A stretch of DNA of 32,811 bases from a virus (lineage: Duplodnaviria; Heunggongvirae; Uroviricota; Caudoviricetes), in IMG/VR virus record IMGVR_UViG_2563366806_000002. One strand, written 5' to 3'. Every line of letters starts with the position of its first letter. Position 1 is the stretch's first letter. A program made the position numbers and the translations under genes. This document shows, piece after piece, positions 1-32,811 of this stretch. The notes under the pieces were generated by a model. That model searched no databases. It was not told the DNA's origin and saw nothing but the letters and a program-made list of their open reading frames with translations.

Positions 1-981
1 TCACACCGCCAGCCCGCCGCCAAGTGGGTTTAATGTCACCGCGTGTTGCAGGTAATCGGGGGCGAGGTGAGCATAAACCATCGTTTGCTGAATGCTCGCA
101 TGACCCAGAATCTGCTGTAACGCGATAATGTTACCCCCGTTCATCATGAACCAGCTCGCGAACGTGTGCCGGAGCACATGCGTAGCCTGCCCGCGTGGCA
201 AGTCTGGTTTAACCTGCCTGAGCCGTTCGCAGAAGTTTTCATAATCAACTTTGAACAATGGCCCGGTGTCACTGGTCTTGATCTCCTTCTCCAGCTCTGC
301 CGATATTGGAACCGTTCGCTTTTTCCCGTTTTTGGTTTTGAGGAACGTCACACGCCCATGGTTAACCTGCTCACCTCGCAGGGTGCTGCCTTCTCCCCAA
401 CGTGCGCCAGTGCTGAGGCATAACAGCGCCACGCGCCGATCATCGCCGGTCAGGGTATCCAGCAGCTTGCTGATCTCTGATTTGGCGAGATAGGTCATAG
501 CTGGCGGCGCTTCTTTCAGTGGTTCCAATCCCTTGCAAGGATTCTCCTTCCTGAACTCATCCAGCTTAATCAACGTGCTGAACATGCCGGAAAAACGGTA
601 TATATCCCGGTTGATCGTTGCGGCGCTGATCCCGTCATCCAGTCGTTGGCTACGGTGCCGGGCGATGGTGCGCTTATCAAGCCGGTTAACTGCTGGATCT
701 CCCAACGCCCTGATTGTCTTTTTCAGGTGCCGCTTTTCTATCTCACCATTTTCCTGAGTCTGCCCATATAGCAGCCACCAGGTATCTAACAACTCGCTCA
801 ACGTGCGGCGGTCTACGCTCGCGCCAAGCCATTCTTTTTTATCAGCGTTAGCTAATACATAACGCTCAAAAAGAACCGCCTCTTGTTTCTTTTCAAATCG
901 CCTGCGGATGCGTTTTCCATTACGCCCACGGGGCCATACGTCTACTTCATACTGACCACCCTCGAGCTTCTTAATCGACAT
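1..981 (-). CDS. int: P2-like tyrosine integrase (stop codon at 1..3)
   Basis: 326-aa ORF with tyrosine-recombinase C-terminal signature (HVLRHTFASW...GHASIQQTMVYAHL); sits at the prophage end, divergent from cox as in P2. Confidence 0.9.
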   Translation of the reverse strand: MSIKKLEGGQYEVDVWPRGRNGKRIRRRFEKKQEAVLFERYVLANADKKEWLGASVDRRTLSELLDTWWLLYGQTQENGEIEKRHLKKTIRALGDPAVNRLDKRTIARHRSQRLDDGISAATINRDIYRFSGMFSTLIKLDEFRKENPCKGLEPLKEAPPAMTYLAKSEISKLLDTLTGDDRRVALLCLSTGARWGEGSTLRGEQVNHGRVTFLKTKNGKKRTVPISAELEKEIKTSDTGPLFKVDYENFCERLRQVKPDLPRGQATHVLRHTFASWFMMNGGNIIALQQILGHASIQQTMVYAHLAPDYLQHAVTLNPLGGGLAV

Positions 982-4802: not shown

Positions 4803-5014
4803 GCATGAAACAGAATAAGAGCGCGGTTTTATCATCAATCCAAAATGTTGCTGTTTTCTTCAATTACGGCGGTGAAACAGTAGCGTTAAAAATGACAGCC
4901 GAACAAAAGAGAGTGATCGGCCTGTTTGCTATTTCAGCCGTTGAAGGTACTGCGGAACTGGTGCGGGTGCCTCATTTGTCATTACCAGCAGATCCAGAAA
5001 TGGAGGCTCTGTAA
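4799..5014 (+). CDS. Hypothetical protein
   Basis: 71-aa ORF, ATGA overlap with the upstream gene. Confidence 0.5.
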   Translation: MSMKQNKSAVLSSIQNVAVFFNYGGETVALKMTAEQKRVIGLFAISAVEGTAELVRVPHLSLPADPEMEAL

Positions 5015-5322
5015 TGTCAAAAATCTATATCGCTGGCCCAATGAGCGGTTTGCCTGGCTTTAATCGCCCGGCGTTTCACCGTGCAGCCGCGCACATTGTA
5101 CGGCGCGGAAATGTTGCTCTTAATCCGGCGATCCTGCCGGATGGCTTAGAGCAAGCGGAGTATGTGGATATCTGCCTTGCCATGCTTCGCTGCGCTGATG
5201 GCATCTTCATGCTGGACGGTTGGCAGCAGTCTGCTGGGGCAAAAGCAGAATACGCGCTTGCTGAAAAGTTGGGGCTGGATATTCAGCACCAGATGATTGA
5301 TCGGTACGTGGGCGCACGATGA
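5014..5322 (+). CDS. DUF4406-like (nucleoside 2-deoxyribosyltransferase-like) protein
   Basis: 102 aa, IYIAGPMSG motif; translationally coupled on both sides. Confidence 0.55.
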   Translation: MSKIYIAGPMSGLPGFNRPAFHRAAAHIVRRGNVALNPAILPDGLEQAEYVDICLAMLRCADGIFMLDGWQQSAGAKAEYALAEKLGLDIQHQMIDRYVGAR

Positions 5323-7928
5323 CCACCGCAGCAAGTGGGCGTGGCGCTCCAACGCCGCCCCATCCGTATCCGGGTAGCGCACCAGACGCCACCCGGTACG
5401 CTTACGAATGGCAGAAGCCGAAAGCTGCCATTTGTGTTGATAAGACTCCCGTTGTTGATCTAGTCGAGCTGGGTCAAGAACAGGAGTTTTTGGCGTGGGT
5501 GAAAGTTACCCTTGCGCCGCTACCTCGCTTTATTCGCCTGCGTCTGGCTTCCCGCATTGACAGTATTCACACCATGAAGGGCAGACACATCGCCCGTCTG
5601 GCGCTACGCGATATCATTCGCAGGGATCTGCCACCCATCAACATGGTTAATGAGCAATACGCTATTGCGATGACCGATGAGGCTGAATCTCAGGCTGATA
5701 CAGCATTCAAAGGGGTAAACCCGCTTTACCACACGTTTAACACTCTTCACGGATTGGTTGAGCGCTTTAACCGCCTGCCGGACTTCACGCCGGAAGATGT
5801 TGAGCTGCTGGCGCAGGATATTGCTATCTATATGCGGTCTGTGCTGAGCGAAGTTCACGAGACGGTAGAGACGCAGAGTGATCGCAAATATGCCGAATAC
5901 CTTTACACCGAAGCGGCTATCCTCGCGCGGCTTTTCTTCCTGACGCCTCCAAGCTGGGAAAAGTATTGCCGGGGCGCGCTGTTTATTGATGAAGCTACTA
6001 CCGGCATCAGAAAGATGCTGGATGATCGCTATTGGCACCGTAACCTGAAAAAGTACGCTGCGCGCTGGCGCGAGCACCTGCACATTGCCTTTGGTGACGT
6101 GAAGCGGGGCGCTGCACCGTATTGCAGTAAGCACCATGTTGATGAGTGGGATGCCAGGCGTAAACGTAGCCGCGCGATCATGGCCCGTCTTGAACTGGAA
6201 GACCAGGACACCAAAGAGCGCATTTCACTTATTGAGCAGATCGATAAGAGCATTTCTAACCCGGCATTGCGCCGCGTTGAACTCATGACCCGCATTGGTG
6301 GTTTTGAGAAAGTAGCCACCGAAAGCGGCTATGCAGGCCAGTTTTTTACTCTGACAGCACCATCCAAATACCACGCCTATACCGTATTCGGTCATCGTAA
6401 TGCCAAATGGAACGGTGCCAGCCCAAGAGCAACGCAGCGCTACCTTAACCGGGTATGGCAAAAGATTCGTGCTGAGCTTGCCCGCCGTGAAATTCCGGTC
6501 TTTGGCCTGCGGGTGGCTGAGTCACACCACGATGGTACGCCGCACTGGCACGGCCTGTTGTTTTCCCTGCCGGAACATTCCGCCGAGTTGCTGGAAGTTA
6601 TGGAAGACTACGCAACCCGTGAGGATGCGGAAGAATTACAAGGTAAACACGGCAACCAACCGCGCTTTGATATGAAGCCGATCGATCATGAAATCGGCAG
6701 CGCCACCGGCTACGTGGTGAAGTACATCAGTAAGAATATTGACGGCTACGCGCTCGACGGCGAAACGGATGACGAGAGCGGCAGGCCACTGAAAGAAACA
6801 TCAAAACACGCTACCGCCTGGGCATCGTGCTGGGGCATCCGTCAGTTTCAGTTTTTGGGCGGTGCGCCGGTATCTGTCTGGCGTGAGCTGCGCCGGTTCC
6901 GCAATCAGGAGCAGGCCGACAAGATAAACCCGCTGTTTGCTGAGCTGCACCGCGCAGCGGATGCTGGCGACTGGCAGCAATACACCAAATTGCAGGGTGG
7001 GGCGCTGGTTGCCCGCCGTGATCTACCGTTGCGCATCTGGTACCAGCAGAAAGAAGAGCCAAATGATTACGGCGAGTATCTGGATCTTATTAAAGGTCTG
7101 GTGATGCCCGCTGCTCACATCCCACCAATTGAAACCCGCCTGCATACCTACCGCATTGTGCGTAAGAAACCGGAGGTTTTAGACGACTCCGGGCAGGCCG
7201 TTGACTTTGATTTTGACCTTCGGGGCGCGTCCGCGCCCTCTAGGACTCGTGTCAATAACTGTACTGAGGTCAAAAAACATACAAATTCAGGGGGTGACAA
7301 TTCGCCACCAGTTGAGCCTGAACAGTATGAAATTGGTCAAATGACCCACGAGCAGAAAAAACGGCTCAATGAAAGCATCAGAAACTACAAACCGGAACGG
7401 CAAAAATCACCTGCTGATGAGTTTGAGGCGCTGGCTAATGCCATTACGGCATCAGATTGTGATGATATTGAGCAGGCCAGGGCGGAGAGCTATCTAAAAG
7501 TTGCTCAAGAATTGAGGCAGCAGGAAAGGGATATGCCTGCTGTTACCGCGCCAGCTCCTATATCAGCCGATCGCATTGCGGCACTGGATGATTTTGCCAG
7601 ATCAATAGGCATAGAGCTGAGCACAGGCCAGTTATCGTTATTGCTACGCGGTGAGTGTTTGCGAATTGATGGCTTTATTGTCTCCGCAACCAGTAGCGGA
7701 GAGCTGAGACGCAGAAAAGATAACAGCGCTGACCGGAAGACCGCCGATTTGTGGCAGCATATGAAGCTAAGTCATAATGTTGACAGCAGAGATATCAGGC
7801 ATGATCCCGTTGGCAGCTATGCGGAAATGTTGAAAAAAGCTGATCCGGCTGCGTGGGACAGGTTGTTTGGTACCAGGAATCAGGAGCAGCGCGTATGTTT
7901 GACGAAGAACAGCGAGAGCAGGAAGTAA
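5319..7928 (+). CDS. A: Replication initiation endonuclease (P2 gpA-like rolling-circle initiator) with long C-terminal extension
   Basis: 869 aa; HUH-type segment ESHHDGTPHWHGLLF and catalytic Tyr region YVVKYISKNIDGY. Confidence 0.9.
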   Translation: MTTAASGRGAPTPPHPYPGSAPDATRYAYEWQKPKAAICVDKTPVVDLVELGQEQEFLAWVKVTLAPLPRFIRLRLASRIDSIHTMKGRHIARLALRDIIRRDLPPINMVNEQYAIAMTDEAESQADTAFKGVNPLYHTFNTLHGLVERFNRLPDFTPEDVELLAQDIAIYMRSVLSEVHETVETQSDRKYAEYLYTEAAILARLFFLTPPSWEKYCRGALFIDEATTGIRKMLDDRYWHRNLKKYAARWREHLHIAFGDVKRGAAPYCSKHHVDEWDARRKRSRAIMARLELEDQDTKERISLIEQIDKSISNPALRRVELMTRIGGFEKVATESGYAGQFFTLTAPSKYHAYTVFGHRNAKWNGASPRATQRYLNRVWQKIRAELARREIPVFGLRVAESHHDGTPHWHGLLFSLPEHSAELLEVMEDYATREDAEELQGKHGNQPRFDMKPIDHEIGSATGYVVKYISKNIDGYALDGETDDESGRPLKETSKHATAWASCWGIRQFQFLGGAPVSVWRELRRFRNQEQADKINPLFAELHRAADAGDWQQYTKLQGGALVARRDLPLRIWYQQKEEPNDYGEYLDLIKGLVMPAAHIPPIETRLHTYRIVRKKPEVLDDSGQAVDFDFDLRGASAPSRTRVNNCTEVKKHTNSGGDNSPPVEPEQYEIGQMTHEQKKRLNESIRNYKPERQKSPADEFEALANAITASDCDDIEQARAESYLKVAQELRQQERDMPAVTAPAPISADRIAALDDFARSIGIELSTGQLSLLLRGECLRIDGFIVSATSSGELRRRKDNSADRKTADLWQHMKLSHNVDSRDIRHDPVGSYAEMLKKADPAAWDRLFGTRNQEQRVCLTKNSESRK
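7221..7240. other. GC hairpin (GGGCGCG-tc-CGCGCCC) followed by AT-rich DNA inside the 3' part of A; candidate replication origin
   Basis: Palindrome read from sequence; in P2 the ori lies within the 3' part of gene A (recalled). Confidence 0.35.
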
Positions 7929-8404
7929 TTGATTTCATCAGTAACAAAATTAAGCGATGCCGTAAGTGTGGTAACGAGCTGCACTACAAGGAAAAGTATT
8001 ATTTTAATGATCGCATTTGCTGCACCTGCAAGGGGTTAAAACCGTTTGACGCTCCCGAAGATATTGCTTTGTCTGAAAGCTGCGAGCCAGAACCAGCGCG
8101 GCTGGCAGATGAAGGCCATGATGCGCGAACCAGTACCGAGCGTGAGCTATTTAGCCGATATCCCGAATGGCAGTTGATGAATGAGAGGGCGGCAAAGAAA
8201 TGGCGTGAAGAGCATCCGCCTGAAGAAAGCAGTCTCCCATCTTCCCGATCAGCGGTAAATTCCGCAGGCCCATTATCTGTTGAGCGCATCAATGAGCTGA
8301 TGGCTAAATATGATGCCAGCGAAGCCGTGGATATCAGGCAGGAAGAGCTGATATCGCTGCTGTGGGAAGTGCTCTATCACCGCAAGATTAATCCAGTCTT
8401 CTGA
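7895..8404 (+). CDS. Acidic zinc-ribbon protein of unknown function (track ORF starts 7853; ATG 7895 with RBS AGGAGC more likely)
   Basis: CRKCGNELHYKEKYYFNDRICCTCKG Cys cluster followed by D/E-rich sequence; overlaps the 3' end of A. Confidence 0.5.
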   Translation: MFDEEQREQEVIDFISNKIKRCRKCGNELHYKEKYYFNDRICCTCKGLKPFDAPEDIALSESCEPEPARLADEGHDARTSTERELFSRYPEWQLMNERAAKKWREEHPPEESSLPSSRSAVNSAGPLSVERINELMAKYDASEAVDIRQEELISLLWEVLYHRKINPVF

Positions 8405-8610
8405 ATGGCAATCGTTATAACCTTCGCAACTTGTTGCGCAGGTTATGGCGATTCTGCGGGCGCGGGCGGCAAAGAGTCCGCAGCATCGCGAAGCGGTGCT
8501 TATGCTGTGTGCGTTTTTGGAAATGAGAGCTGAAACAATAATTTTAGTCATTACAGGCACTAATCTGACTAAGCCCATTTGGGTGACTAGTCAAATTTAA
8601 AGGAATAGAA

Positions 8611-8916
8611 ATGCCAAAAATGAAAGATGGGGATCTGCTTTATAAAGATTACGTTAACCACGCCCGATCAGCTGGTGACGACCCAACCAAGATTATTTCA
8701 GATGCCAAGCGCTTTAACAGGCATGAAAAGTATGAGGTGCTTGATTTTCTTAATGCACTGCATGGACAGAACGGGGCAGACCTCGCCATCAAAACACGGC
8801 AAATTTGTGAGTGGATGATTCGCACCTATCTGCCTGGCACGATTCAAAGCACAAAAGCTGTTGAATCATGGGTTGCTGCAAACTTCGAAGAGCTTTCTAA
8901 AAAGTATCCATATTGA
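8611..8916 (+). CDS. Hypothetical 101-aa protein, AT-rich stand-alone moron
   Basis: AT-rich ORF with RBS AAAGGAA, 200-bp upstream gap, and a strong terminator directly after. Confidence 0.55.
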   Translation: MPKMKDGDLLYKDYVNHARSAGDDPTKIISDAKRFNRHEKYEVLDFLNALHGQNGADLAIKTRQICEWMIRTYLPGTIQSTKAVESWVAANFEELSKKYPY

Positions 8917-8933
8917 TGATTTTCATCTCTAAA

Positions 8934-8957
8934 GGCCGTCATTGATGGCCTTTTTTT
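8934..8957 (+). terminator. Rho-independent terminator
   Basis: GGCCGTCA..TGATGGCC stem followed by T7 run. Confidence 0.75.
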
Positions 8958-8965
8958 ATTTTCTG

Positions 8966-9080
8966 TAGAAATTGCCGCACAATCCCGCATTAAATTGCAC
9001 AATTTTTTTGACGGTACTTTTGCCAGACAAGCCCAGACGCGGCGCGGCCTGCCGTGATCTGCAAGTTTGCACAAAAAGAC
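8966..9080. repeat. Three direct (A)TTGC(A)CAA(T) repeats upstream of cos; candidate terminase/IHF recognition elements
   Basis: aaATTGCcgCACAAT, aaATTGCACAATtt, gTTTGCACAAAaa read from sequence. Confidence 0.35.
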
Positions 9081-9096
9081 GGGGGTTTTGTGTGCG

Positions 9097-9115
9097 GGCG
9101 AGGCGGGGGAACCAT
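9097..9115. other. cos-like site GGCGAGGCGGGGGAACCAT
   Basis: Close match to the recalled 19-nt P2/186 cohesive end (GGCGAGGCGGGGAAAGCAC); in the expected position beside the portal gene. Confidence 0.55.
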
Positions 9116-9326
9116 CGCGCGCTGAGGGGGTAAGGAGGGTATACCTGTTAATGCCCTTTTCCGCGTCTGTGCGGCTCTGTTTTGATGTGGTTGCGTTGTG
9201 GTCGGGTGAGGGGATGGAAAAGGAAAGCCCATGCCAGCGTGGCGCTGAGGGGCTTGTGTGGCGTTTGGCTTTTGCGCTGGTTGCGCTCACCCTCTGGCAG
9301 GGTGAGGCATCAATCTTTTTGAATGG

Positions 9327-10373
9327 TCAGGCGGCTGTTGGTGGGGATGCGAGGGCGTAAGGGTTAAAGCGGATCACCTCAAAGCCCAGCCAGTCATTCA
9401 GCTCCTTCAGGCTTTCTTGTATCGGCGTCAGCTCGTTGATGGAGAAGACGCGGGCGGCTTTCTCAACGTCACCAAACCCCCCGGCGTTGCCTGGCATCAC
9501 CCCCATCAGTTGAGGCGGAACGCGGTGCGCGGCAAGCATATCATCCCGCGTTGCGTCCTTGATGCCGGTAAACTCATCCTTTGCCGCTATCTGGCTGAAT
9601 GGCAGGATTTGCAAGCCGTCTTTCTTCCCGCCTGCTGCGTATACGAACAGGTTTTTAAAAGCGCCACCGCCGCGCGCATCTTTCAATGATTTTTTCAGGC
9701 TCTCAACGTCTTTGTTGTTGGCGATCGGGTCGGTCAGGTAGACGATTACCCCGGCATGACTGCCGTTGATGTAGTAGTTGCGGCGGAACATGGTCGCTTC
9801 ACTGTTGAGCATGGCGCTTTGTAACGAGGCCATGTATTCAGGTGCGCCGTAGATCTCCTGGTGGATGCTGGGGTTTTTTATCTGGCAGATGCTGCCCGGC
9901 TTGAATGGGTAGTCCGCATCACGGCGGGTGATAAACCAGTATTGATCTTTTTTCAGGTCGCTGCCGCGTCGGGTATATTTGGCCTGGGCGTGTTTTAACG
10001 CAATAGGCTCGCCCAGCATGTTACGGCGCACCTCCATGTAGTTGTTGCCGAATACCAGATAATCCAGCACCCACGCGCTCATTTCCTGCCTGCTCAGCAG
10101 CGGGTGAGGGATGTAGCAGGATGTGATCACATTACGCTTAAAGACCAGCGGCGACTGATGATAGGCCGTTGAATCAAACATCCGGGCGATGCCGTAGGGG
10201 CTGATCGGTGGTTCAAAATATACGCCGTTATCAGCGCACTCCATGCAATCCAGCAACATGCTGCGATCGGTGATAGCTACCGGGTCGCCAAAGCTGAATG
10301 ACTCAATGCCTGCGGTTTGTTCGCTGGCACCCGGCTGCGGTCTGGCCTGAAACTTTTGCTTTTTGCGGCTCAC
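9327..10373 (-). CDS. Q: Portal protein (P2 gpQ-like)
   Basis: 348-aa ORF with P2 Q-type sequence; leftward with P as in P2. Confidence 0.9.
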   Translation of the reverse strand: MSRKKQKFQARPQPGASEQTAGIESFSFGDPVAITDRSMLLDCMECADNGVYFEPPISPYGIARMFDSTAYHQSPLVFKRNVITSCYIPHPLLSRQEMSAWVLDYLVFGNNYMEVRRNMLGEPIALKHAQAKYTRRGSDLKKDQYWFITRRDADYPFKPGSICQIKNPSIHQEIYGAPEYMASLQSAMLNSEATMFRRNYYINGSHAGVIVYLTDPIANNKDVESLKKSLKDARGGGAFKNLFVYAAGGKKDGLQILPFSQIAAKDEFTGIKDATRDDMLAAHRVPPQLMGVMPGNAGGFGDVEKAARVFSINELTPIQESLKELNDWLGFEVIRFNPYALASPPTAA

Positions 10374-10375
10374 GT

Positions 10376-12091
10376 TTAAAACTCCTCTACAAAACTGTCA
10401 CTACCGCCGCCGCTTTCGCTGCCGATCGGCTCGTTATACAAAGCTGTCATTGATGCCCAGGCGAGATCGCCGTGATTGCTGCCGCGTTTGCGGTCGGAAA
10501 CGTAGGTCATTACCCCGCCTTTCTGCACCTTGCGAACCGTCATAAATGACTGGACGAGATCCAGCATTCCCGCATCCACTTCCAGACGACCGGCACGGAT
10601 CAACATAAGCGCTTTCAGCACCATGGCGCGCTTGAGTGGGGCGGAATACTGGTATTTCACCGCCAGCGGGAAGAACTTGATTACCAGTTGCCAGACGGCA
10701 TCACCAATGCCGGTGGCATCAATCGCGATGTGCTGGACGTTGTAACGCTCCGTCAGCCCCTGAATGGCCTTTGCCTGTTCCTCAAACTCCATCCCGCGAA
10801 GCTGGATGCGTTCAATGATGCGGAACTTGCCGCCCGATACCGCTGGCGGAACGATGACGACCAGTCCGGCAGAGTCACCGTTACCGCTTCCCCCGTTGGG
10901 GTCATAGCCTACCCATACACTGCGATCGCCTATCGGTTTGGGTGCGAATGGGTTCCAGTCGGGCCATACATCATCGTTGAAGCCGTCAACGCAGCAGCCG
11001 ATCATGGCGTTGTAGTTAAAGGCGCGCTCTCCCGCAGTCACGAAGCGGCAACGATAGAGGTTGTCGTATTCCTCCGGGGAGTTTTCCATCTTGATGGTTT
11101 CAATTTTCACCAGGTTGAAGCCGAGTTTTACCGCGTCTTCAATGGTGACAATCTGCCGCCAAATCCCATCCCCGCCCAGCTTGCCGTTTTTCAGCGCCTT
11201 GTGGCTGACGTCTATTTCTACCCGTTCACCTCTGGGCCTTGCCTTGTTGAACAGGTCGCCAGTCCAGAAGGCATAAGCCTCATGCTCCTCTGTGGATGGC
11301 GTGGAAAAGTAGGTACGGCGCAGCCCTTCATGGGTTGCCATGCCTGCGGCGACTTTACGCAGCTCAAGGAAATTGTTGATCCAGAATGCTTCATCAAGAT
11401 ACAGATCGCCGGTGTAGCTCTGTGCCGTCGCTGCTGAGGTGCCGAGAAAGTAGAACGTTGCGCCGTTGCTTAGGGTGATGGCGTCGCCGCCTTTCAGCTC
11501 AACGCCAACCTGTGCCGCCAGTAGTTGGATGAACTTCTTGAACTGGAACGCCTGGGCGCGGCTGGCTGACAGAAAGATCTGGTTGTTGCCAGTTTCCAGC
11601 GCCCGTAACAGTGCTTCGCGGGCAAAGTACCAGGTGGCACCAATCTGGCGCGATTTGAGGATAAAGCGGTTGCGGCGTTCGCGCTGCTTGTACCAGCGTT
11701 TTTGATGCTCGTAGAGCGAATCCAGCACCAGAGCGCGCAGATCCCCGATCTGCTCTTCCGTAAAGTGGTTTTTCGGCTTTTTCTCGCGGCCTTTCTCTTC
11801 GCTGCGGCGCTCTTCGCGCTCCATCCTCACCAGTTGACGGGTTAACAGGTCAATGGTTTTGAAGTCATGCGCCGTCAGGTCTGGCTTTTCCGTCAGACGT
11901 AACAGCCGCACCTGCATCCGATCCTGTACGCGCTCCAGCGCTGTGGACTCGTCCCACTTATCGCGGCGACGCCATGAATACAGGGTGTTGGTACTCACGC
12001 CGATCGATTTGGCGATCTGCGTGATGCTGTATGCCTGCCAGTACATGACCTTAGCGGCAATCCGTGGCTCATCGTGGGAAGTCTGTTTCAT
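10376..12091 (-). CDS. P: Terminase large (ATPase) subunit (P2 gpP-like); start may be internal
   Basis: 571 aa, Walker A-like KSRQIGATWYF, nuclease domain; adjacent to portal. Confidence 0.9.
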   Translation of the reverse strand: MKQTSHDEPRIAAKVMYWQAYSITQIAKSIGVSTNTLYSWRRRDKWDESTALERVQDRMQVRLLRLTEKPDLTAHDFKTIDLLTRQLVRMEREERRSEEKGREKKPKNHFTEEQIGDLRALVLDSLYEHQKRWYKQRERRNRFILKSRQIGATWYFAREALLRALETGNNQIFLSASRAQAFQFKKFIQLLAAQVGVELKGGDAITLSNGATFYFLGTSAATAQSYTGDLYLDEAFWINNFLELRKVAAGMATHEGLRRTYFSTPSTEEHEAYAFWTGDLFNKARPRGERVEIDVSHKALKNGKLGGDGIWRQIVTIEDAVKLGFNLVKIETIKMENSPEEYDNLYRCRFVTAGERAFNYNAMIGCCVDGFNDDVWPDWNPFAPKPIGDRSVWVGYDPNGGSGNGDSAGLVVIVPPAVSGGKFRIIERIQLRGMEFEEQAKAIQGLTERYNVQHIAIDATGIGDAVWQLVIKFFPLAVKYQYSAPLKRAMVLKALMLIRAGRLEVDAGMLDLVQSFMTVRKVQKGGVMTYVSDRKRGSNHGDLAWASMTALYNEPIGSESGGGSDSFVEEF

Positions 12092-12137
12092 GGTGGCAGA
12101 GTACCGCGCCCGCGCGCGCGTCGCTTCGGGTTGTCAT

Positions 12138-12155
12138 TGTCGGAAAACGGCAACA
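12138..12155. promoter_or_regulatory. TGT-N12-ACA dyad in the P/O divergent late promoter region (Ogr/Delta-type activator box candidate)
   Basis: TGTcggaaaacggcaACA read from sequence, 83 bp upstream of the O start. Confidence 0.45.
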
Positions 12156-12237
12156 ACGGCAACGCTTTGCGCGATCCGGCTGGGGCGGGAATGATAGAGG
12201 CACTGGTTAATATCATTCACTCATTCGGGATTTCGAC

Positions 12238-13077
12238 ATGCCAAAGTCTAAATTTTTCCGCGTCGCTGTTGAGGGTGCCACCTGCGATGGTCGGACGCTG
12301 GAGCGCCAGCACATCGAACAGATGGCTAAACGCTTCAACCCAGCGTTATACGGTGCTCGCGTCAATCTGGAGCACTGGCGCAGCGCTTCACCAAACAGTG
12401 ATTTCCGTGCTTATGGCGATGTTATTGCCGTCAAGGCTGAGGAAGTCACCGAAGAGCCGTTAAAAGGCAAGTTGGGGCTGTATGTGCAGGTTGATGCCAC
12501 TGATGATCTGGTTGCCCTCAAAAAGAGCCGTCAGAAGATTTATCACAGCATTGAAGTGCATCCCTCATTTGCTGATACCGGCGAAGCCTATTTGATGGGG
12601 CTGGCCTGTACTGATAGCCCTGCCAGTCTGGGCACGGAAATGATGGAGTTTTGTGCCAAAAGCACCGTTAACCCGCTGGCCTCACGCAAGCACGATCAGG
12701 CTTGTTTCTTCACCGCCTCCGTTGAATCCACGATGGAATTTGAAGATGAGCAGCCGCCGCAGGACGAAGGCAAAAACTTCTTTGCCCGTATTAAGGCGCT
12801 GTTGGGCGGTACGCAGCAGCAGTTTAACCAGCAGAACGGTGAAAACCGTGAGGCTATCGAGGCGATTGCCGAGAGCCAGGGCAAGCTGCTGGACAGTACA
12901 ACCCAGCTTTCTGCTGCGGTGAAAGGTAAGGCTGACGCCACCGAGCTGGAAAGCCTGCGTAAGGACTTCAAAGCGCTGGAAGAGAAACTGAAAGGCCAGG
13001 ACGCCGAGCAGTACAACCAGCGCCCGCCTGCCACTGGCGGCGATGGTCAATCAACTCAACATCTGGCTGATTGCTGA
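12238..13077 (+). CDS. O: Capsid scaffolding protein (P2 gpO-like)
   Basis: 279-aa ORF, position and composition match gpO. Confidence 0.85.
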   Translation: MPKSKFFRVAVEGATCDGRTLERQHIEQMAKRFNPALYGARVNLEHWRSASPNSDFRAYGDVIAVKAEEVTEEPLKGKLGLYVQVDATDDLVALKKSRQKIYHSIEVHPSFADTGEAYLMGLACTDSPASLGTEMMEFCAKSTVNPLASRKHDQACFFTASVESTMEFEDEQPPQDEGKNFFARIKALLGGTQQQFNQQNGENREAIEAIAESQGKLLDSTTQLSAAVKGKADATELESLRKDFKALEEKLKGQDAEQYNQRPPATGGDGQSTQHLADC

Positions 13078-13116
13078 TAAGGCTCAGTGCGTCAGGCTCA
13101 GGAAAGGAAAAATAAG

Positions 13117-14163
13117 ATGCGTAATACAACCCGCGATTTGTTTGATAAGTACATTCAGCGACAGGCTGAACTCAACCATATCAGCGCTGCCCACGTCACC
13201 AAGGCGTACAGCATTGATCCGAGCGTTGAGCAGACGCTTGAGGATAAGATCCAGCAGTCGTCTGAGATGCTGAAAAAAATTAACATTTACGGCGTTAACG
13301 ATCAGACCGGTGAAAAAATCGGCCTGGGTGTGAGTGGCCCGGTATCCAGTACCAACAATTCCACCACGGATCGCCGTCAGCCTACCTCTGTGGCGGCGCT
13401 GGATTCGAATAAGTACACCTGTAACAAGGTGAACGCCGATACCTTTACGCCGTACACGCAACTTGATGCCTGGGCAAAATTCCCGGACTTTCAGCAGCGC
13501 CTCAGCAATCAGATCATCAAGCGTATTGCGCTCGATCGCATCATGATCGGCTTCAACGGTACCAGCTACGCGGAGAAATCAGACCGCGCCGCCAACCCGC
13601 TGTTGCAGGATTGTGGTATCGGCTGGCTCCAGCAGTACCGCACTAACGCGGCCCAGCGTGTGATGAAGGATGTCACTGTGACCAGCCGTGACGACACCAA
13701 CCAGGTGATCGCCAAAGGTGATTACGGTAACTATGACTCCATCGTATTTGATGCGGTCAACTCGCTTATGGATGAGTGGTACAAGGATTCGCCTGATCTG
13801 GTGGTGATTACCGGGCGTAATCTGACGGTTAACCGCTCTTTCCCGATCATCAACGCTGTAAGCACCAATAACCCTAACTCCGAAGCACTTGCCGGGCAGT
13901 TGATTGCATCGCGCAAAACGATCGGCAACCTGCCGTCATTTATCGCGCCATTCTTCCCTGATGGCAGCATGTTCATTACCTCCTGGGAAAACCTGTCCAT
14001 CTACTGGCAGGAAGGCGGGCACCGTCGCCGCATCGTTGAAGAGCCGGAGTATAACCGCGTCTCAACGTACAGCTCTTCGAATGATGCCTACGTCATTGAA
14101 GACTACGGCTATGGCTGTCTGATCGAGGGCATCACCGCCGCCGAGCCAGCACCAGCACCATAA
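13117..14163 (+). CDS. N: Major capsid protein (P2 gpN-like); track ORF starts at GTG 13087, ATG 13117 has RBS AGGAAAGGAAA
   Basis: Sequence similarity to P2 N; operon position. Confidence 0.9.
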   Translation: MRNTTRDLFDKYIQRQAELNHISAAHVTKAYSIDPSVEQTLEDKIQQSSEMLKKINIYGVNDQTGEKIGLGVSGPVSSTNNSTTDRRQPTSVAALDSNKYTCNKVNADTFTPYTQLDAWAKFPDFQQRLSNQIIKRIALDRIMIGFNGTSYAEKSDRAANPLLQDCGIGWLQQYRTNAAQRVMKDVTVTSRDDTNQVIAKGDYGNYDSIVFDAVNSLMDEWYKDSPDLVVITGRNLTVNRSFPIINAVSTNNPNSEALAGQLIASRKTIGNLPSFIAPFFPDGSMFITSWENLSIYWQEGGHRRRIVEEPEYNRVSTYSSSNDAYVIEDYGYGCLIEGITAAEPAPAP

Positions 14164-14207
14164 GACGCCGCAGGCCAGCAGTGCGCAGGCCTGCTCAGGG
14201 GGCATAA

Positions 14208-15053
14208 ATGTTAACACCAGCACAAAAACATTTTGATCGGGTGATGGCTGAGCGCCGCAGTAATCGCGGTACAACCACCGCCGAAAGAACTGCATACGAG
14301 CAGATACTTTTTCGCCTGCGCATGGATAAAGCCGACCTCAGCCGCATCCAGTCGAATGCCGGTAAGGCGAAGCTGAAAAGCGAGCGCCTGCCGGATTACC
14401 AGCCATGGATTGATGGCGTACTGGCAGCGGATACGGGCCAGGCGGATGAAGTGATCACCACTGTAATGATCTGGGCAGCGGATGCCGGTGATATTGCGCA
14501 GGCGCTACGGATAGGCCAGTACGTGCTGCGCCATAAAATCCCGATGCCTGACCAGTACAAGCGCACCACCGCCACGGTACTGGTTGAAGAAATTTGTGAT
14601 CCCATCCTTGCCGCCTTCAAAGCGAACCCGGCAAAGGCAAGCGTGAGCATTGACAACCTCAACGCACTGAACGGCATCACCACCCATGAAGATATGCCCG
14701 ATCAGGTAAGGGCTAAGTTGTTTAAGGCCATGGGGTACACCGTGCGCCTTAATCAGGATGTTGAATCCCAGCAGCTTGCCCGCTCGCATTTGCAGGAAGC
14801 TATCAGGCTCAACGCAAAAATTGGCGTGGCGCGTGATATCGAACTGCTGGATCGCAATATCAAAAAGCTGACCGCAGCCAGCGGCGGAGAAGGCGAGGGC
14901 GATGCGCCACCGGTACAGCCGGAAGCGCAGCCAGAGGCCGCGAAAGCTGCGCCGGAGAAAGCGCCGCGCACTACCGCAGCCAGGAACCAGAAAAACAGCC
15001 AGGCAAAAACGGCAGCAAAGAACAAGACGACGCGCAAAACCGCGAAGTCATAA
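14208..15053 (+). CDS. M: Terminase small (endonuclease) subunit (P2 gpM-like)
   Basis: N-terminal MLTPAQKHFDRV and central regions resemble P2 M; Lys/Ala-rich basic tail. Confidence 0.85.
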   Translation: MLTPAQKHFDRVMAERRSNRGTTTAERTAYEQILFRLRMDKADLSRIQSNAGKAKLKSERLPDYQPWIDGVLAADTGQADEVITTVMIWAADAGDIAQALRIGQYVLRHKIPMPDQYKRTTATVLVEEICDPILAAFKANPAKASVSIDNLNALNGITTHEDMPDQVRAKLFKAMGYTVRLNQDVESQQLARSHLQEAIRLNAKIGVARDIELLDRNIKKLTAASGGEGEGDAPPVQPEAQPEAAKAAPEKAPRTTAARNQKNSQAKTAAKNKTTRKTAKS

Positions 15054-15152
15054 CGAATGTGCCCCCGCGCACCAGGCGGCACGGTGTGACGTAGTAAGGC
15101 CCGGCCTCTACTGCGTCACACCGTCCACCGCCTGCCTTATGGAGAGTCCTGT

Positions 15153-15641
15153 ATGAGCCTGGTCGCCACTGAACCGGTAAGACCGCCATCAGATCCCGCG
15201 CCGGATGATGGCGGCGCAAAGGTTGAGAGCCTGCCTTTCTGGCCTGTCATTGTGCTGGCTGATTTGCGCCGGGCGATGCGCCTTGATGGGCAGGTAACGA
15301 CCGATCGCCTTATGTCACGCACCATTGAGGCAGTGGCCCACGTCAACGATCAGCTTCTTCTGTGGCGTCAGGTTCAGGTTGATGCCGGTTATCTGACTCT
15401 GGCGGAGATCCCCGCCGATCCGGTGAATGGTGAATCGGTGAAGGTCTGGCGCTATAAAAATGCCGTCTGGTCACTGACCAAAGCCCTGCTGATTGAGGGG
15501 TATCGCGATATTGATACCACCAGTAAAGGGGATGACCACGCGCAGGCGCTCAGCACCCAGATAGATACGCTTTGGCGTGATGTTCGCTGGTCTATTCGCG
15601 ATATCCAGAATGAAGATCGCGGCCTTGCGGAGCTGTGCTAA
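15153..15641 (+). CDS. L: Head completion/stabilisation protein (P2 gpL-like)
   Basis: 162-aa ORF in P2 order. Confidence 0.8.
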   Translation: MSLVATEPVRPPSDPAPDDGGAKVESLPFWPVIVLADLRRAMRLDGQVTTDRLMSRTIEAVAHVNDQLLLWRQVQVDAGYLTLAEIPADPVNGESVKVWRYKNAVWSLTKALLIEGYRDIDTTSKGDDHAQALSTQIDTLWRDVRWSIRDIQNEDRGLAELC

Positions 15642-15844
15642 TGAACGTGCAGGCGCAGCAGGATGACACCGTTGATGAACTCTGCTGGAGGTATTACGGC
15701 AGGACGGCGGGAGTAACCGAAGCCGTGCATGAAGCCAATCCGGGGCTGTGCGACAGCGGCCCGCTGCTGAGTGCCGGGCAGGTTGTTTATCTTCCAGAAT
15801 TACCACCACCCACCCAGCGGGAAACCGTGCAGCTATGGGATTGA
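15641..15844 (+). CDS. X: Tail protein X (P2 gpX-like, LysM-like)
   Basis: YYGRTAGVTEAVHEANPGL matches the P2 X motif YYGRTEGVVETVLAANPGL; ATGA overlap with L. Confidence 0.8.
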   Translation: MNVQAQQDDTVDELCWRYYGRTAGVTEAVHEANPGLCDSGPLLSAGQVVYLPELPPPTQRETVQLWD

Positions 15845-15853
15845 GAGGTTGCC

Positions 15854-16183
15854 ATGAGCGACGTACCTACGGGGATGCTGGAACAAACAATGAAATGGAT
15901 TGCTACTTATCTGCCGACGCTTTACGCGGCAGGCGCTGCGCTGAGCATTTCGGCGCTTATGAGTCTGTATGACGGTCAGTCAATGCTGAAAACCGCCACC
16001 GGTTCACTGGTCTGCGGGATCGTTACGCTGGCGGTTGCCGGTTCGCTGGAATATCTGGGCTTGCCGTCTAATGCCGTTACCTTCGTGGGTGCATCCATAG
16101 GTTTTATGGGGGCTGACAAGGTACGCAACAAAGTGACCGGCTTTATTGAAACCCGTATCGGGGGAGCGAAAGGAAATGAGTGA
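15854..16183 (+). CDS. Putative holin
   Basis: 109 aa with about three hydrophobic helices and a charged C-terminus, directly upstream of the endolysin. Confidence 0.6.
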   Translation: MSDVPTGMLEQTMKWIATYLPTLYAAGAALSISALMSLYDGQSMLKTATGSLVCGIVTLAVAGSLEYLGLPSNAVTFVGASIGFMGADKVRNKVTGFIETRIGGAKGNE

Positions 16184-18201: not shown

Positions 18202-18293
18202 CCCATTTCTGCAGTACTGTTAAAAGTGACAGTGCTCGATGCTTTTTCCCGCCACTGTCATAACTGGCAGTGTCTGCCGGTACCACCCTCCAT

Positions 18294-29439: not shown

Positions 29440-30567
29440 ATGTTGGATGATGATGCGCGTTATTCGCCCCGCCCGGCGTTCAGTATTCAGATTGAGGGCA
29501 AGCAGCTCACCGCGCTGGATGACCGTTTGATCTCGTTGTCGCTGACGGACAATCGGGGATTTGAAGCGGATACGCTTGATCTCACGCTGGATGATTCAGA
29601 CGGACAGATCGTTATGCCATCGCGTGGCGCGAAGATTTCCGTTTCGCTGGGCTGGGATAATGACCCGCTGATATTTAAAGGACTGTACACCGTTGATGAG
29701 GTTGCGCACCGTGGCCCGCCTGATCAGCTCACAATCAGCGCCCGCAGCGCAGACTTTCGCGACACGTTCAACGTGAAGCGTGAATATTCCTGGCACGATA
29801 TTACCGTGGGCGATGTGGTTGCCAGTATCGCCAGCCGGTACGACCTGCGAGCCGGGGTGAGTGAGGAACTGGCGAAGATTGAGATCGATCACGCAGACCA
29901 GACCAGTGAATCAGATATCAGCTTTCTCACCAGAATGGCGGATATGCTGGGTGCGGTTGCCACCGTTAAAAATGGCATGTTGCTGTTCATCACGCCGGGG
30001 CAGGGCTTAACCCAAAGCGGTAAACCATTACCGGCGATCAGCATTGTGCGGGCCAGCGGCGATAAGCACAGCTTTAGCATTGCCGATCGTGATGCTTATA
30101 CCGGCGTTACTGCCTACTGGCTGGATCTAAATTTCGGGAAGAAGCCTGCCACCACGGTACAGACAAACACCCGCAGACGCCGCAGAACAACCCAGCCGAA
30201 GAAGCCGAAAGAACCCGCCTCAAGCAGCAAAGAAGGGGATTACATGGCAGGCGCGGAAGGCAACGTATTCGTGATCCGCAAGACGTTCAAAACCGAGAAG
30301 GCAGCGAAGCGGGCAGCGGCGGCGAAGTGGAGCCAGTTACAGCGTGGCGCGGCGTCATTCTCCATCACGCTGGCGCGGGGCCGGGCGGATTTGTACCCGG
30401 AACAACCGGCAAGCGTATCGGGCTTTAAGTCCACGATTGATAACGGTTACTGGACGATTACCCGATGTGTGCATGATATCGGCAGCGGCGGCTTTACCAC
30501 CTCGCTGGAGCTGGAAGTTAAGATCGATGAATGGACGGCTGAGGCGGGTGACGAATCAACGGGTTAA
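29440..30567 (+). CDS. D: Tail protein D (P2 gpD-like, late control D family)
   Basis: ATG 29440 with RBS GAGGGA; N-terminus MLDDDARYSPRPAFSIQ is gpD-like (track ORF begins upstream at TTG 29269). Confidence 0.9.
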   Translation: MLDDDARYSPRPAFSIQIEGKQLTALDDRLISLSLTDNRGFEADTLDLTLDDSDGQIVMPSRGAKISVSLGWDNDPLIFKGLYTVDEVAHRGPPDQLTISARSADFRDTFNVKREYSWHDITVGDVVASIASRYDLRAGVSEELAKIEIDHADQTSESDISFLTRMADMLGAVATVKNGMLLFITPGQGLTQSGKPLPAISIVRASGDKHSFSIADRDAYTGVTAYWLDLNFGKKPATTVQTNTRRRRRTTQPKKPKEPASSSKEGDYMAGAEGNVFVIRKTFKTEKAAKRAAAAKWSQLQRGAASFSITLARGRADLYPEQPASVSGFKSTIDNGYWTITRCVHDIGSGGFTTSLELEVKIDEWTAEAGDESTG

Positions 30568-30613: not shown

Positions 30614-30856
30614 ATGGCAATGCGCTGTCCTCGCTGCCGTGCAGTTGCGAAAACTCGTACCAGTGTAGAGTTGAGTGATTTAGTGCGACGCAGTTATCAC
30701 CAGTGTCAAAACATGTTGTGCGGCTACTGCTTTACCAGCATGACGCAAATAGACGAATCATTAAACCAGACTCAGCCAGTCCCCGGCGCGGTGGTTCCTC
30801 AAGACGTTTTCCCGCGAAGTCATCACGGCGAAGATCAGCTTAGTCTGGTGTTGTAG
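30614..30856 (+). CDS. ogr: Ogr/Delta-family zinc-finger late transcription activator
   Basis: CPRC...YHQCQNMLCGYCF matches the Ogr zinc-finger pattern CPLC...YHQCQNVNC. Confidence 0.85.
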   Translation: MAMRCPRCRAVAKTRTSVELSDLVRRSYHQCQNMLCGYCFTSMTQIDESLNQTQPVPGAVVPQDVFPRSHHGEDQLSLVL

Positions 30857-30870
30857 TTTCGAAGCAAGGC

Positions 30871-30900
30871 AAAAGCCTGCCGGACAGGCAGGCTTATTGT
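30871..30900. terminator. Bidirectional hairpin terminator between ogr and the convergent downstream gene
   Basis: AGCCTGCC-ggaca-GGCAGGCT stem, A-run on one side and T-rich on the other. Confidence 0.6.
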
Positions 30901-31622
30901 TATTGCAGTTCTTTCAGTTCAACAATCTTACCAGTGGCTATATCTACTTTAGCGGAAACGGTGTTTTTTACCGTTGCCCCAAGAGCATTTGCGCCACGGA
31001 ATGTTGTCACAAATACTGCATATGGTTTTTTGTCTTTCTCAAACATTAATTGATGGGTGGTTTTGATATGTTTGTAGGATGAGTCATCGTTCATCTGTTC
31101 TTTGATCGCGACCTCTAAGGGGTAGTAGACGCCGTTATAGTCGCTCAGCATTTCATCGAAATTATCAAAATTTATACGGTCAGAAAGAGATGTTGCATCG
31201 CGGGTAAAATCTGAGTAACACCAATCAAGCACTTGATCGAGGTGTAGTTCTTCCGATTTTCTATGAGAATATTCGCTTAGGCAGTTGTAGAAGTCATTAC
31301 GTGCAGATTCAGGGATCTTTTTAAATTTAACATACGAGTTAACAATTTCGCGTCTGTCTTCCTTATCGTTCTTAACTCTCCATTCCTTTAGTGATAAATC
31401 GGCGTATTTAAATTTTTCTTCTTTAATCGGTGGGCGTTCTTGAGCGTTGCTTGAGGTAGAAGGGCGTAAACTGGCCCCTATTGCAGCAACGACTAAGCAC
31501 ATTGAGAAGTAGAAAAGAGACGATTTTTTTCTGTTTGGCATGAAAACCCACTTTGGATTTATAAGCCCGATCCAGAAAGCGATACCGGCTATCGCTGCAA
31601 TGATAGTGATGATTTTTTCCAT
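30900..31622 (-). CDS. AT-rich membrane-anchored protein of unknown function (candidate cargo/moron)
   Basis: 240 aa; two N-terminal hydrophobic helices then a charged soluble domain; strong RBS GGAGGG; clearly lower GC than flanking DNA. Confidence 0.6.
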   Translation of the reverse strand: MEKIITIIAAIAGIAFWIGLINPKWVFMPNRKKSSLFYFSMCLVVAAIGASLRPSTSSNAQERPPIKEEKFKYADLSLKEWRVKNDKEDRREIVNSYVKFKKIPESARNDFYNCLSEYSHRKSEELHLDQVLDWCYSDFTRDATSLSDRINFDNFDEMLSDYNGVYYPLEVAIKEQMNDDSSYKHIKTTHQLMFEKDKKPYAVFVTTFRGANALGATVKNTVSAKVDIATGKIVELKELQ

Positions 31623-31827: not shown

Positions 31828-31908
31828 ATCCTCAATTTGCCTGCTGCTTAATGCATTGCAGATGATTTGCTTCCGTTATACTAGCGTCAGTTGATAGCGG
31901 GAGTATTT

Positions 31909-32811
31909 ATGAATCAATCTTATGGACGGCTGGTCAGTCGGGCGGCGATTGCTGCGACGGCGATGGCTTCGCTGCTATTGCTGATTAAAATTTTTGCATG
32001 GTGGTATACCGGGTCGGTGAGTATTCTCGCCGCGCTGGTGGATTCGCTGGTGGATATCGGCGCGTCGTTGACGAATTTACTGGTGGTGCGATATTCCCTG
32101 CAACCTGCCGACGATAATCACTCGTTTGGTCACGGTAAAGCTGAGTCCCTCGCGGCGCTGGCGCAAAGTATGTTTATCTCCGGTTCAGCACTATTCCTGT
32201 TTTTGACGGGTATTCAACATCTGATATCTCCAACACCGATGACAGATCCAGGCGTCGGGGTTATCGTGACAATTGTGGCGCTAATTTGTACGATTATCCT
32301 TGTCTCGTTTCAGCGTTGGGTGGTGCGCCGGACGCAAAGCCAGGCGGTGCGGGCTGATATGCTACATTACCAGTCTGATGTTATGATGAACGGCGCAATT
32401 CTGCTGGCGCTGGGGTTGTCCTGGTACGGCTGGCATCGCGCCGATGCTCTGTTTGCATTGGGAATCGGCATCTATATTTTATATAGCGCGTTACGCATGG
32501 GATATGAGGCGGTACAGTCATTACTGGATCGCGCATTACCTGATGAGGAACGGCAAGAAATTATTGATATCGTGACTTCCTGGCCGGGTGTTAGCGGCGC
32601 TCACGATCTTCGCACGCGGCAGTCAGGGCCGACCCGCTTTATTCAGATTCATTTGGAAATGGAAGACTCTCTGCCTTTGGTTCAGGCACATATGGTGGCG
32701 GATCAGGTAGAGCAGGCTATTTTACGGCGTTTTCCGGGATCGGATGTGATTATCCATCAGGACCCCTGTTCCGTCGTACCCAGGGAGGGTAAACGGTCTA
32801 TGCTTTCATAA
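31909..32811 (+). CDS. fieF: Cation-diffusion facilitator FieF/YiiP (ferrous iron / zinc efflux), host gene
   Basis: Translation from ATG 31909 ([54 protein letters not shown]...) matches enterobacterial FieF as recalled; stop at window end. Confidence 0.95.

Follow-up and report, generated by a model that had tools for sequence, protein, structure and literature searches.

Between the cargo genes and the portal gene of the phage sequence studied here (the window, that is, the whole 32,811-nt stretch of DNA, IMG/VR record IMGVR_UViG_2563366806_000002) lies an intergenic segment, 8954..9326, and the question it raises is whether it holds a packaging site at which the terminase could still cut, and what the remaining sequence around such a site might do. 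Segment 8976..9122 was found to be, very probably, a working cos site of the P2 type belonging to a complete P2-like prophage, its predicted nicks being at 9096/9097 in the top strand and 9115/9116 in the bottom one. The assignment to the P2/186 type was derived from the sequence of the site, its position, the register of the flanking elements and the adjoining intact terminase and portal genes. The features involved were listed in Table 1.

The window is filled by a P2-like prophage. When the P2 proteins were compared with it by tblastn, 25 had homologues (Q, P, O, N, M, L, X, R, S, V, W, J, I, H, FI, FII, E, T, U, D, Ogr, Int, C, Cox and A), with 25-69% identity and in nearly the P2 order; the alignments covered mostly near whole length, those of A and H being partial. 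Of the annotated phages, SEN4 and SEN5 of Salmonella were the most closely related (~78% nucleotide identity in the late genes), and a contig of Enterobacter soli (L147) matched window positions 9030..16011 with 95.5% identity. The window ends in a host gene (31891..32811) which we take to be fieF from reading its translated sequence. Based on the E. soli match, the SEN4/SEN5 relatives and this terminal gene, the host is most likely Enterobacter or a close relative. The element is a complete P2-like prophage of the Peduoviridae, related to SEN4.

Genes are arranged around the site as in P2: A and the cargo genes come before cos, which is followed by the minus-strand genes Q and P and then by the plus-strand genes O, N, M and L. 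The site is located between the replication/cargo region and the portal gene, and the Q-P operon is transcribed towards it. Two ORFs spanning cos, 8844..9290 (minus strand) and 9067..9360 (plus strand), were taken as chance ORFs, the intergenic region being cut in the virion. Between 8500 and 9500, no known RNA family matched near its gathering score, and a scan of the same range found no sigma-70-like promoter.

Several other properties of the prophage were noted. The cargo ORFs between A and cos sit where P2 has old/tin, a position described as a hotspot for anti-phage cargo (Rousset et al. 2022; PMC9122126). The gpA-like replication protein (5319..7928) has 869 aa, compared with 761 aa in P2, and only P2 residues 1-637 align with it, the C-terminal third being different or extended. 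The tail genes FI-FII-E-T-U run on the minus strand from 29272 to 23696, whereas the plus strand carries D (29440..30555) and ogr (30614..30856); the tail block is therefore inverted with respect to the P2 gene order. Between ogr and fieF there is a gene for a predicted membrane protein of 240 aa (30900..31622, minus strand; PHROG 3403), probably a moron adjoining attR.

Table 1 Features of the cos region and neighbouring genes (window positions; GCA starts are given relative to the top-strand nick)
Feature	Position	Strand	Remarks
Cargo ORF	7853..8404		PHROG 21788; function not assigned by PADLOC or Pfam
Cargo ORF	8611..8916		PHROG 33929; function not assigned by PADLOC or Pfam
Intrinsic terminator of the upstream cargo ORF (8611..8916)	8931..8953	+	10-pair stem, then T-run; left boundary of the intergenic cos region
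Distal GCA cluster (CGCACAA, CGCATTA, TGCACAA)	8976..9002	+	exact 10-bp spacing; putative cosB-like terminase recognition element
GC-rich block between the repeat clusters	9031..9054	.	family G+C 71% at -70..-51
Proximal GCA pair and A-tract, TGCAAGTTTGCACAAAAAGA	9060..9079	+	start of the 55-bp core common to P2 and P4
Left flank of the top-strand nick, GTGTGCG/	9090..9096	+	family consensus GCG[CG]GC[AG]
Predicted 19-nt 5' cohesive end (cosN overhang), GGCGAGGCGGGGGAACCAT	9097..9115	+	by homology with P2 cosL
Right flank, CGCGCGC	9116..9122	+	reverse complement GCGCGCG/ precedes the bottom-strand nick
G-rich, C-poor stretch (41% G, 14% C on the top strand)	9123..9223	.	101 nt, downstream of the Q terminator
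tQ-like intrinsic terminator of the P-Q operon	9216..9255	-	hairpin 9225..9255, then UUUCCUUUUCC; predicted fold, conserved in relatives
Hairpin directly after the Q stop, without U-tract	9282..9309	-	predicted fold; conserved
Portal protein, gpQ homologue	9327..10373	-	PF04860 (Phage_portal); 47.7% identity to P2 Q, residues 1-339
Large terminase, gpP homologue	10376..12091	-	PF06056, PF03237, PF17289; 48% identity to P2 P
Small terminase, gpM homologue	14208..15053	+	PF05944, PHROG 74; 39.5% identity to P2 M; candidate reader of the GCA repeats
GCA starts, window	-120, -110, -100, -36, -28		
GCA starts, P2	-122, -110, -100, -28		
GCA starts, P4	-123, -110, -100, -34, -28		
GCA starts, 186	-123, -110, -100, -34, -28		
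GCA starts, SEN4	-120, -110, -100, -36, -28		

An earlier note on this DNA had claimed that 9097..9115 resembles the cohesive end of P2 and 186, and had proposed a comparison with the P2 cos region as a check. This comparison bore the claim out, as the position and the repeat register agreed with P2 and GGCGAGGCGGGGGAACCAT matched the annotated P2 cosL GGCGAGGCGGGGAAAGCAC (NC_001895 misc_feature 1..19) at 16 of 19 positions, the first 12 nt being identical. The agreement was also 16/19 with the cos of 186 and rose to 17/19 with that of SEN4. With up to three mismatches allowed, GGCGAGGCGGGGGAACCAT was the sole match to P2 cosL on either strand of the window, where 0.01 matches would be expected from dinucleotide shuffles. 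It has the form of a G-rich 19-mer composed of GGCG(A/T)GGCGGGG and seven more bases.

The sequences at both nicks are arranged as mirror images. The family consensus of the left flank, GCG[CG]GC[AG], mirrors the GCGCGC[AG] that precedes the bottom-strand nick; these 7 nt were outside the search pattern, so the consensus was not imposed by it. The core of the window contains a proximal GCA element with an A-tract and mirror-image GCGSGCR flanks at both nicks, and it has the same base as P2 at about 37 of the 57 core positions from -31 to +26 (~65%, our own count). On this comparison, the cos core is conserved in architecture more than in sequence. The two-fold symmetry of the flanks would fit a symmetric pair of nuclease active sites; symmetry of the P2 and 186 ter sites was already noted in the 1970s.

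The DNA ends of P2 were determined experimentally, and the exact nick positions and the 19-nt overhang of the window are predictions by homology with P2. A metagenome contig of 5.5 kb (L012, IMGVR_UViG_3300030524_000143) ends at its position 5540, exactly at the G equivalent to 9097, which is consistent with a genuine terminus at the predicted top-strand nick. The SEN4 record also starts at the base equivalent to 9097, although this start may follow the P2 convention and not a measurement. For P2-family phages, 19-nt ends and a cos core of 55 bp that is conserved have been described (Ziermann and Calendar 1990, as cited in PMC3931495 and PMC5694545).

The claim that the packaging site is intact was also supported. 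The 19-mer GGCGAGGCGGGGGAACCAT is present in nine independent viral contigs, and a 65-nt cos core recurs exactly in the Enterobacter soli genome, so the site looks intact. The terminase that would be cognate to it is encoded in cis, with a P2-type gpP (Terminase_5 N-terminus), a gpM (Phage_term_smal) and the portal protein; the gpP homologue is composed of an N-terminal HTH-like Terminase_5 domain, an ATPase and an RNaseH-like nuclease. Portal, large and small terminase, scaffold, capsid and head-completion proteins, six in all, match their Pfam models over the full length. Because the packaging genes are full length, the 65-nt core is exact and the 19-mer recurs, a functional packaging module is likely, and it is plausible, with an intact-looking cos and these genes, that the prophage is packageable, as had been proposed. 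That the prophage is defective or cryptic and no longer packaged, its cos being a mere relic, is highly improbable. Such a relic would agree with the location of attL outside the window, with the failure of tblastn to detect homologues of P2 B, Y, K and lysA/B, and with a mismatch in the stem of the tQ-like terminator. However, at such divergence the lysis and B genes are expected to escape detection since these modules are replaceable, and ORFs fill their positions. Moreover, the homologues of the 25 P2 genes, mostly near whole length, include int, C, cox, A and ogr, and the E. soli prophage that shares the 65-nt core is an independent one, 95.5% identical over the next 7 kb, and neither this nor the six end-to-end Pfam matches nor the recurrence of the 19-mer would suit a decayed element.

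The earlier note had further suggested that the prophage may be inducible, which does not follow from the cos site. The immunity repressor is a protein of the same type as P2 C (49% identity), and P2 is classically not SOS-inducible. A CTGT-N8-ACAG site with at most one mismatch was not found in 4937..9635, a range which includes the cargo region at 7.8-9.1 kb. An SOS/Tum-like induction module near cos was considered and rejected, as there is no LexA-type box and neither Pfam nor PADLOC gave an assignment for the cargo ORFs. With this repressor, and with no LexA box near cos, the element does not have the features of an SOS-inducible prophage of the 186 type. In another part of the window, between the S and V homologues, there is a perfect CTGT-N8-ACAG palindrome, CTGTTAAAAGTGACAG, at 18217..18232, with a near copy at 18255..18270; it could be a late-promoter activator site or a LexA-like box.

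To the left of the cohesive end, three direct repeats had been pointed out, and this description was only partly right. Two of them are exact copies of TTGCACAA, at 8995 and 9067, and these are the only exact copies in the 32.8 kb, both in the cos region. The third, at 8971..8981 (TTGCCGCACAA), is degenerate, its CCGCACAA matching TTGCACAA at 6 of 8 positions. The repeats listed were real, but the list was incomplete, because CGCATTA at 8986 and TGCAAG at 9060 were missing from it. The pattern YGCAYWA occurs four times on the plus strand, at 8976, 8986, 8996 and 9068.

The arrangement of these elements was compared across 129 P2-family cos regions, taken from IMG/VR contigs together with P2, P4, 186 and SEN4 and comprising 34 different 19-mers. 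After weighting over the 34 cos types, TGCA was enriched 10-15 fold at -130..-101 and at -40..-21, with a frequency of 0.4-0.7 per 10 bp in these two zones, and of 0.4-0.5 at the distal cluster, vs ~0.04 elsewhere, and GCA was found at -28 in 74% of the cos types. The distal cluster of the window falls in the same place, with GCA on the right-end side at about 100-125 bp from the nick. The distance from its innermost GCA (-100) to the proximal one at -28 is 72 bp, or about seven helical turns. Between the two clusters, at the position of window 9031..9054, clear dyads were seen in P4 and 186. Since the GCA register is nearly exact in P2, P4, 186 and SEN4 (Table 1), the window repeats can be regarded as the local version of a helically phased GCA array present throughout the family. 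The register is kept even though the window phage and P2 have only 36-49% identity in their head and packaging proteins.

A function of the repeats as promoter or operator was rejected, since they are present with either orientation of the neighbouring gene, which points towards cos in the window and in P4 (psu) and away from it in P2 (old). That the array serves as a docking element for the terminase is, in our estimate, somewhat more probable than not, although well short of assured. We infer that the terminase would bind the GCA repeats through gpM as the reading subunit.

The bases that follow GCA fall into three half-site types. GCAT[GT]A was found in the P2, 186 and P4 types and GCACAA in the clade of the window and SEN4, while GCAGGG was found in a set of cos types with G+C-rich flanks. 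Within one phage the distal and proximal copies share the half-site, and lineages differ from each other: the fourth base agrees between distal and proximal copies in 76% of cases vs 51% in permutations, and none of 2000 permutations reached the observed value. The motif type follows the clade of gpM, but it follows that of gpP equally, and both are confounded by phylogeny, with essentially one split per motif type. The co-variation was therefore dropped as a proof that gpM is the reader.

The repeats might be read by something other than gpM, either the HTH-like N-terminal domain of gpP or a host DNA-bending protein for which they would be architectural, and this appears rather doubtful. Residues 8-64 of gpP (window 11900..12091) match PF06056 and, weakly, several HTH families including the small-terminase DNA-binding model PF10668 (E = 0.004), which makes this domain a second candidate reader of cos. 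Likewise, the 10-bp phasing and the T7 (9003..9009) and A5 (9074..9078) tracts would suit a bent or wrapped architecture. On the other hand, it is the small subunit that recognises the packaging site in the cos and pac phages studied (PMC7617512; PMC10359639), while the agreement of the motif type with the gpM clade, being shared by gpP, does not discriminate. A sequence search for solved structures related to gpM or gpP gave no meaningful match. We hold it less firmly that the reader is gpM, and not the HTH-like N-terminal domain of gpP, than that the array is a docking element.

Homology with related phages breaks inside the right arm of the site, at 9030 in the comparison with the E. soli contig and at ~8994 in that with contigs of the L010/L013 type (L010-L025). 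Across these breaks each variant keeps GCA at -120/-110/-100 or degenerate GC[AG] versions of it. As the breakpoints are inside the right arm and the repeats are kept in each variant, it seems that cargo cassettes, when exchanged, take the distal part of cos with them. A wider proposal would be that the phased GCA elements are the cosB of the whole P2/P4 family, a two-part docking array whose 3' half-site co-evolves with the small terminase and sets helper-satellite and cargo packaging, and that cassettes are swapped along with a compatible distal half of cos, the last part being suggested by the cargo-hotspot breakpoints (9030 and ~8994) inside the array. We are nearly evenly divided on this proposal and lean slightly against it.

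On the other side of the cohesive end, the earlier note had described a G-rich region of ~200 bp before the Q stop. This region is indeed there: the 211 nt of 9116..9326 contain 38% G, 20% C and 14% A and are among the top 0.5% of all 211-nt segments, with the G maximum of the whole window at 9075, so that this is its most G-rich part. Two hairpins were predicted in it. The P2 record annotates tQ at the place equivalent to window 9216..9255, and the hairpin at 9282..9309 shows one compensatory pair change (T..A to G..C) in two related contigs (L014 and L021). At 9229..9232 one mismatch interrupts the stem of the tQ-like terminator, which reads GCCCATGCC where most relatives have GCCCCTGCC; its U-tract is also a little weaker.

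The composition of the spacer raises the possibility that it is part of the packaging signal, as a cosB- or cosQ-like element or a second, degenerate copy of cos, which we regard as quite improbable. Apart from its G content, which is the highest in the window, the idea is favoured by G exceeding C on the spacer side in P2, 186 and SEN4 as well, and by a 76% identical copy of the nick-site context found by a repeat search at 9195..9211. However, the best match of the nick-site 18-mer in the spacer did not surpass those in shuffles of matched composition (p = 0.25 for the window and ~0.65 for P2 and 186), and the same was true of 31 other cos types; the second copy was therefore rejected, and the cos-like repeat in the spacer is a composition effect. 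Nor is G-richness general, since the spacer of one contig with the same cos type (L019) is not G-rich; this contig was considered as a possible P4-like satellite, which was rejected because Q- and P-sized ORFs lie beside its cos, so it is a phage. P4 is a satellite packaged by the P2 terminase (PMC9122126), and its similarity to P2 is limited to the repeats, the core and +1..+26, the sequence from +27 being unrelated and A/T-rich. In phiCTX and phiRSY1, whole genes are located between cos and Q (PMC5694545). Because P4 is packaged by the P2 terminase without such a spacer and other P2-like phages have genes at this place, the G-rich spacer is probably not part of the packaging signal.

Another possibility is that 9123..9223 is a Rho-utilisation region which backs up the intrinsic terminator and keeps late transcription off cos and the cargo/early region. 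On the strand of the Q operon this stretch has 41% C and 14% G; it is immediately 3' of the tQ-like hairpin, its strand bias is opposite to that of the adjacent minus-strand genes, and a modest bias of G over C is found on the spacer side family-wide. Such a region seems unlikely all the same, as the argument is one of composition throughout, the P2 annotation gives a rho-independent terminator only, and the bias could be mutational or tied to the G-rich cos core. Any role related to Rho would thus be a hypothesis suggested by base composition.

These observations can be combined into a putative sequence of events for the preferred reading, a working P2-type cos. P2 packages monomeric circles, not concatemers. 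After excision and replication of the prophage, the terminase, consisting of gpP and gpM, would assemble on the right-arm elements, that is, the GCA repeats in 10-bp phase at -120/-110/-100 and the proximal pair at -36/-28. The nuclease of gpP would then nick both strands at mirror-image sites, the top strand between 9096 and 9097 (after GTGTGCG, before G) and the bottom strand between 9115 and 9116 (after the 5'-to-3' flank GCGCGCG), and the expected products would be 19-nt 5' cohesive ends, GGCGAGGCGGGGGAACCAT. The 211-nt spacer would not act as a recognition element but would provide the P-Q operon with its 3' UTR hairpin and its intrinsic terminator, and the stretch beyond the terminator, C-rich on the transcribed strand, may help to stop read-through across cos.

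For the window itself, the result is a complete and apparently functional packaging module with predicted virion ends at 9097 (left) and 9115 (right), which would be useful for annotation, orientation of the phage genome, cosmid design and checks of the termini. Sites of this kind have been known since the 1970s. The P2 cos with its 19-nt ends and 55-bp core is textbook knowledge (PMC3931495, PMC5694545 and PMC9122126). The register seen throughout the family, and the way in which the GCA elements co-vary, came as a useful by-product of this analysis. The register across 129 P2-family sites offers a testable candidate for the recognition element of the P2/P4 terminase, and such an element would bear on helper-satellite specificity and on the anti-phage cargo hotspots that lie directly against cos (PMC9122126).

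The site was finally compared with known systems. With lambda cos (cosQ-cosN-cosB) it shares a partly two-fold symmetric nick site beside a one-sided repeat array and a two-subunit terminase. The lambda site differs in its 12-nt overhang, its unrelated sequences, its R sites and IHF site, and its Nu1/A terminase, which is unrelated by sequence; the window has a 19-nt overhang by homology and a terminase of the PF05944/PF06056 families. The resemblance therefore appears to be functional only, and the window cos is not in the lambda family. The likeness to 186 (Eganvirus) is closer, with an overhang identical at 16 of 19 positions, the same repeat register and a terminator after the portal gene W. 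In contrast to the window, 186 has TGCAT-type repeats and an SOS-inducible Tum module near cos, of which the window gives no sign.

The window site is most similar to that of SEN4/SEN5 (Senquatrovirus), with 17/19 of the overhang, the proximal element TTTGCACAAAAA and the repeats at -120/-110/-100/-36/-28 in common; it differs in the last three to four nucleotides of the overhang (CGAG vs CCAT), in its other cargo genes and in a diverged left arm. From P2 it differs at three overhang positions, in the repeat unit (GCACAA vs TGCAT), in the segment between the proximal repeat and the nick, which is the G-run CGGGGGTTTTGTGTGCG in the window and CCGCCCCGTGAAGCGGGCG in P2, and in the spacer to Q, which has 211 nt and an extra hairpin in the window vs 167 nt in P2; the third distal GCA is at -120 vs -122 in P2 and -123 in P4. 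It shares with the P2/P4 site 16 of 19 overhang positions (the first 12 identical), the same place between A/cargo and Q, a GCGCGC flank after the overhang, GCA at -110, -100 and -28, and a P2-type gpP/gpM terminase encoded next to the site. The window site is thus an ordinary P2-like cos, whose features are conserved across the family.
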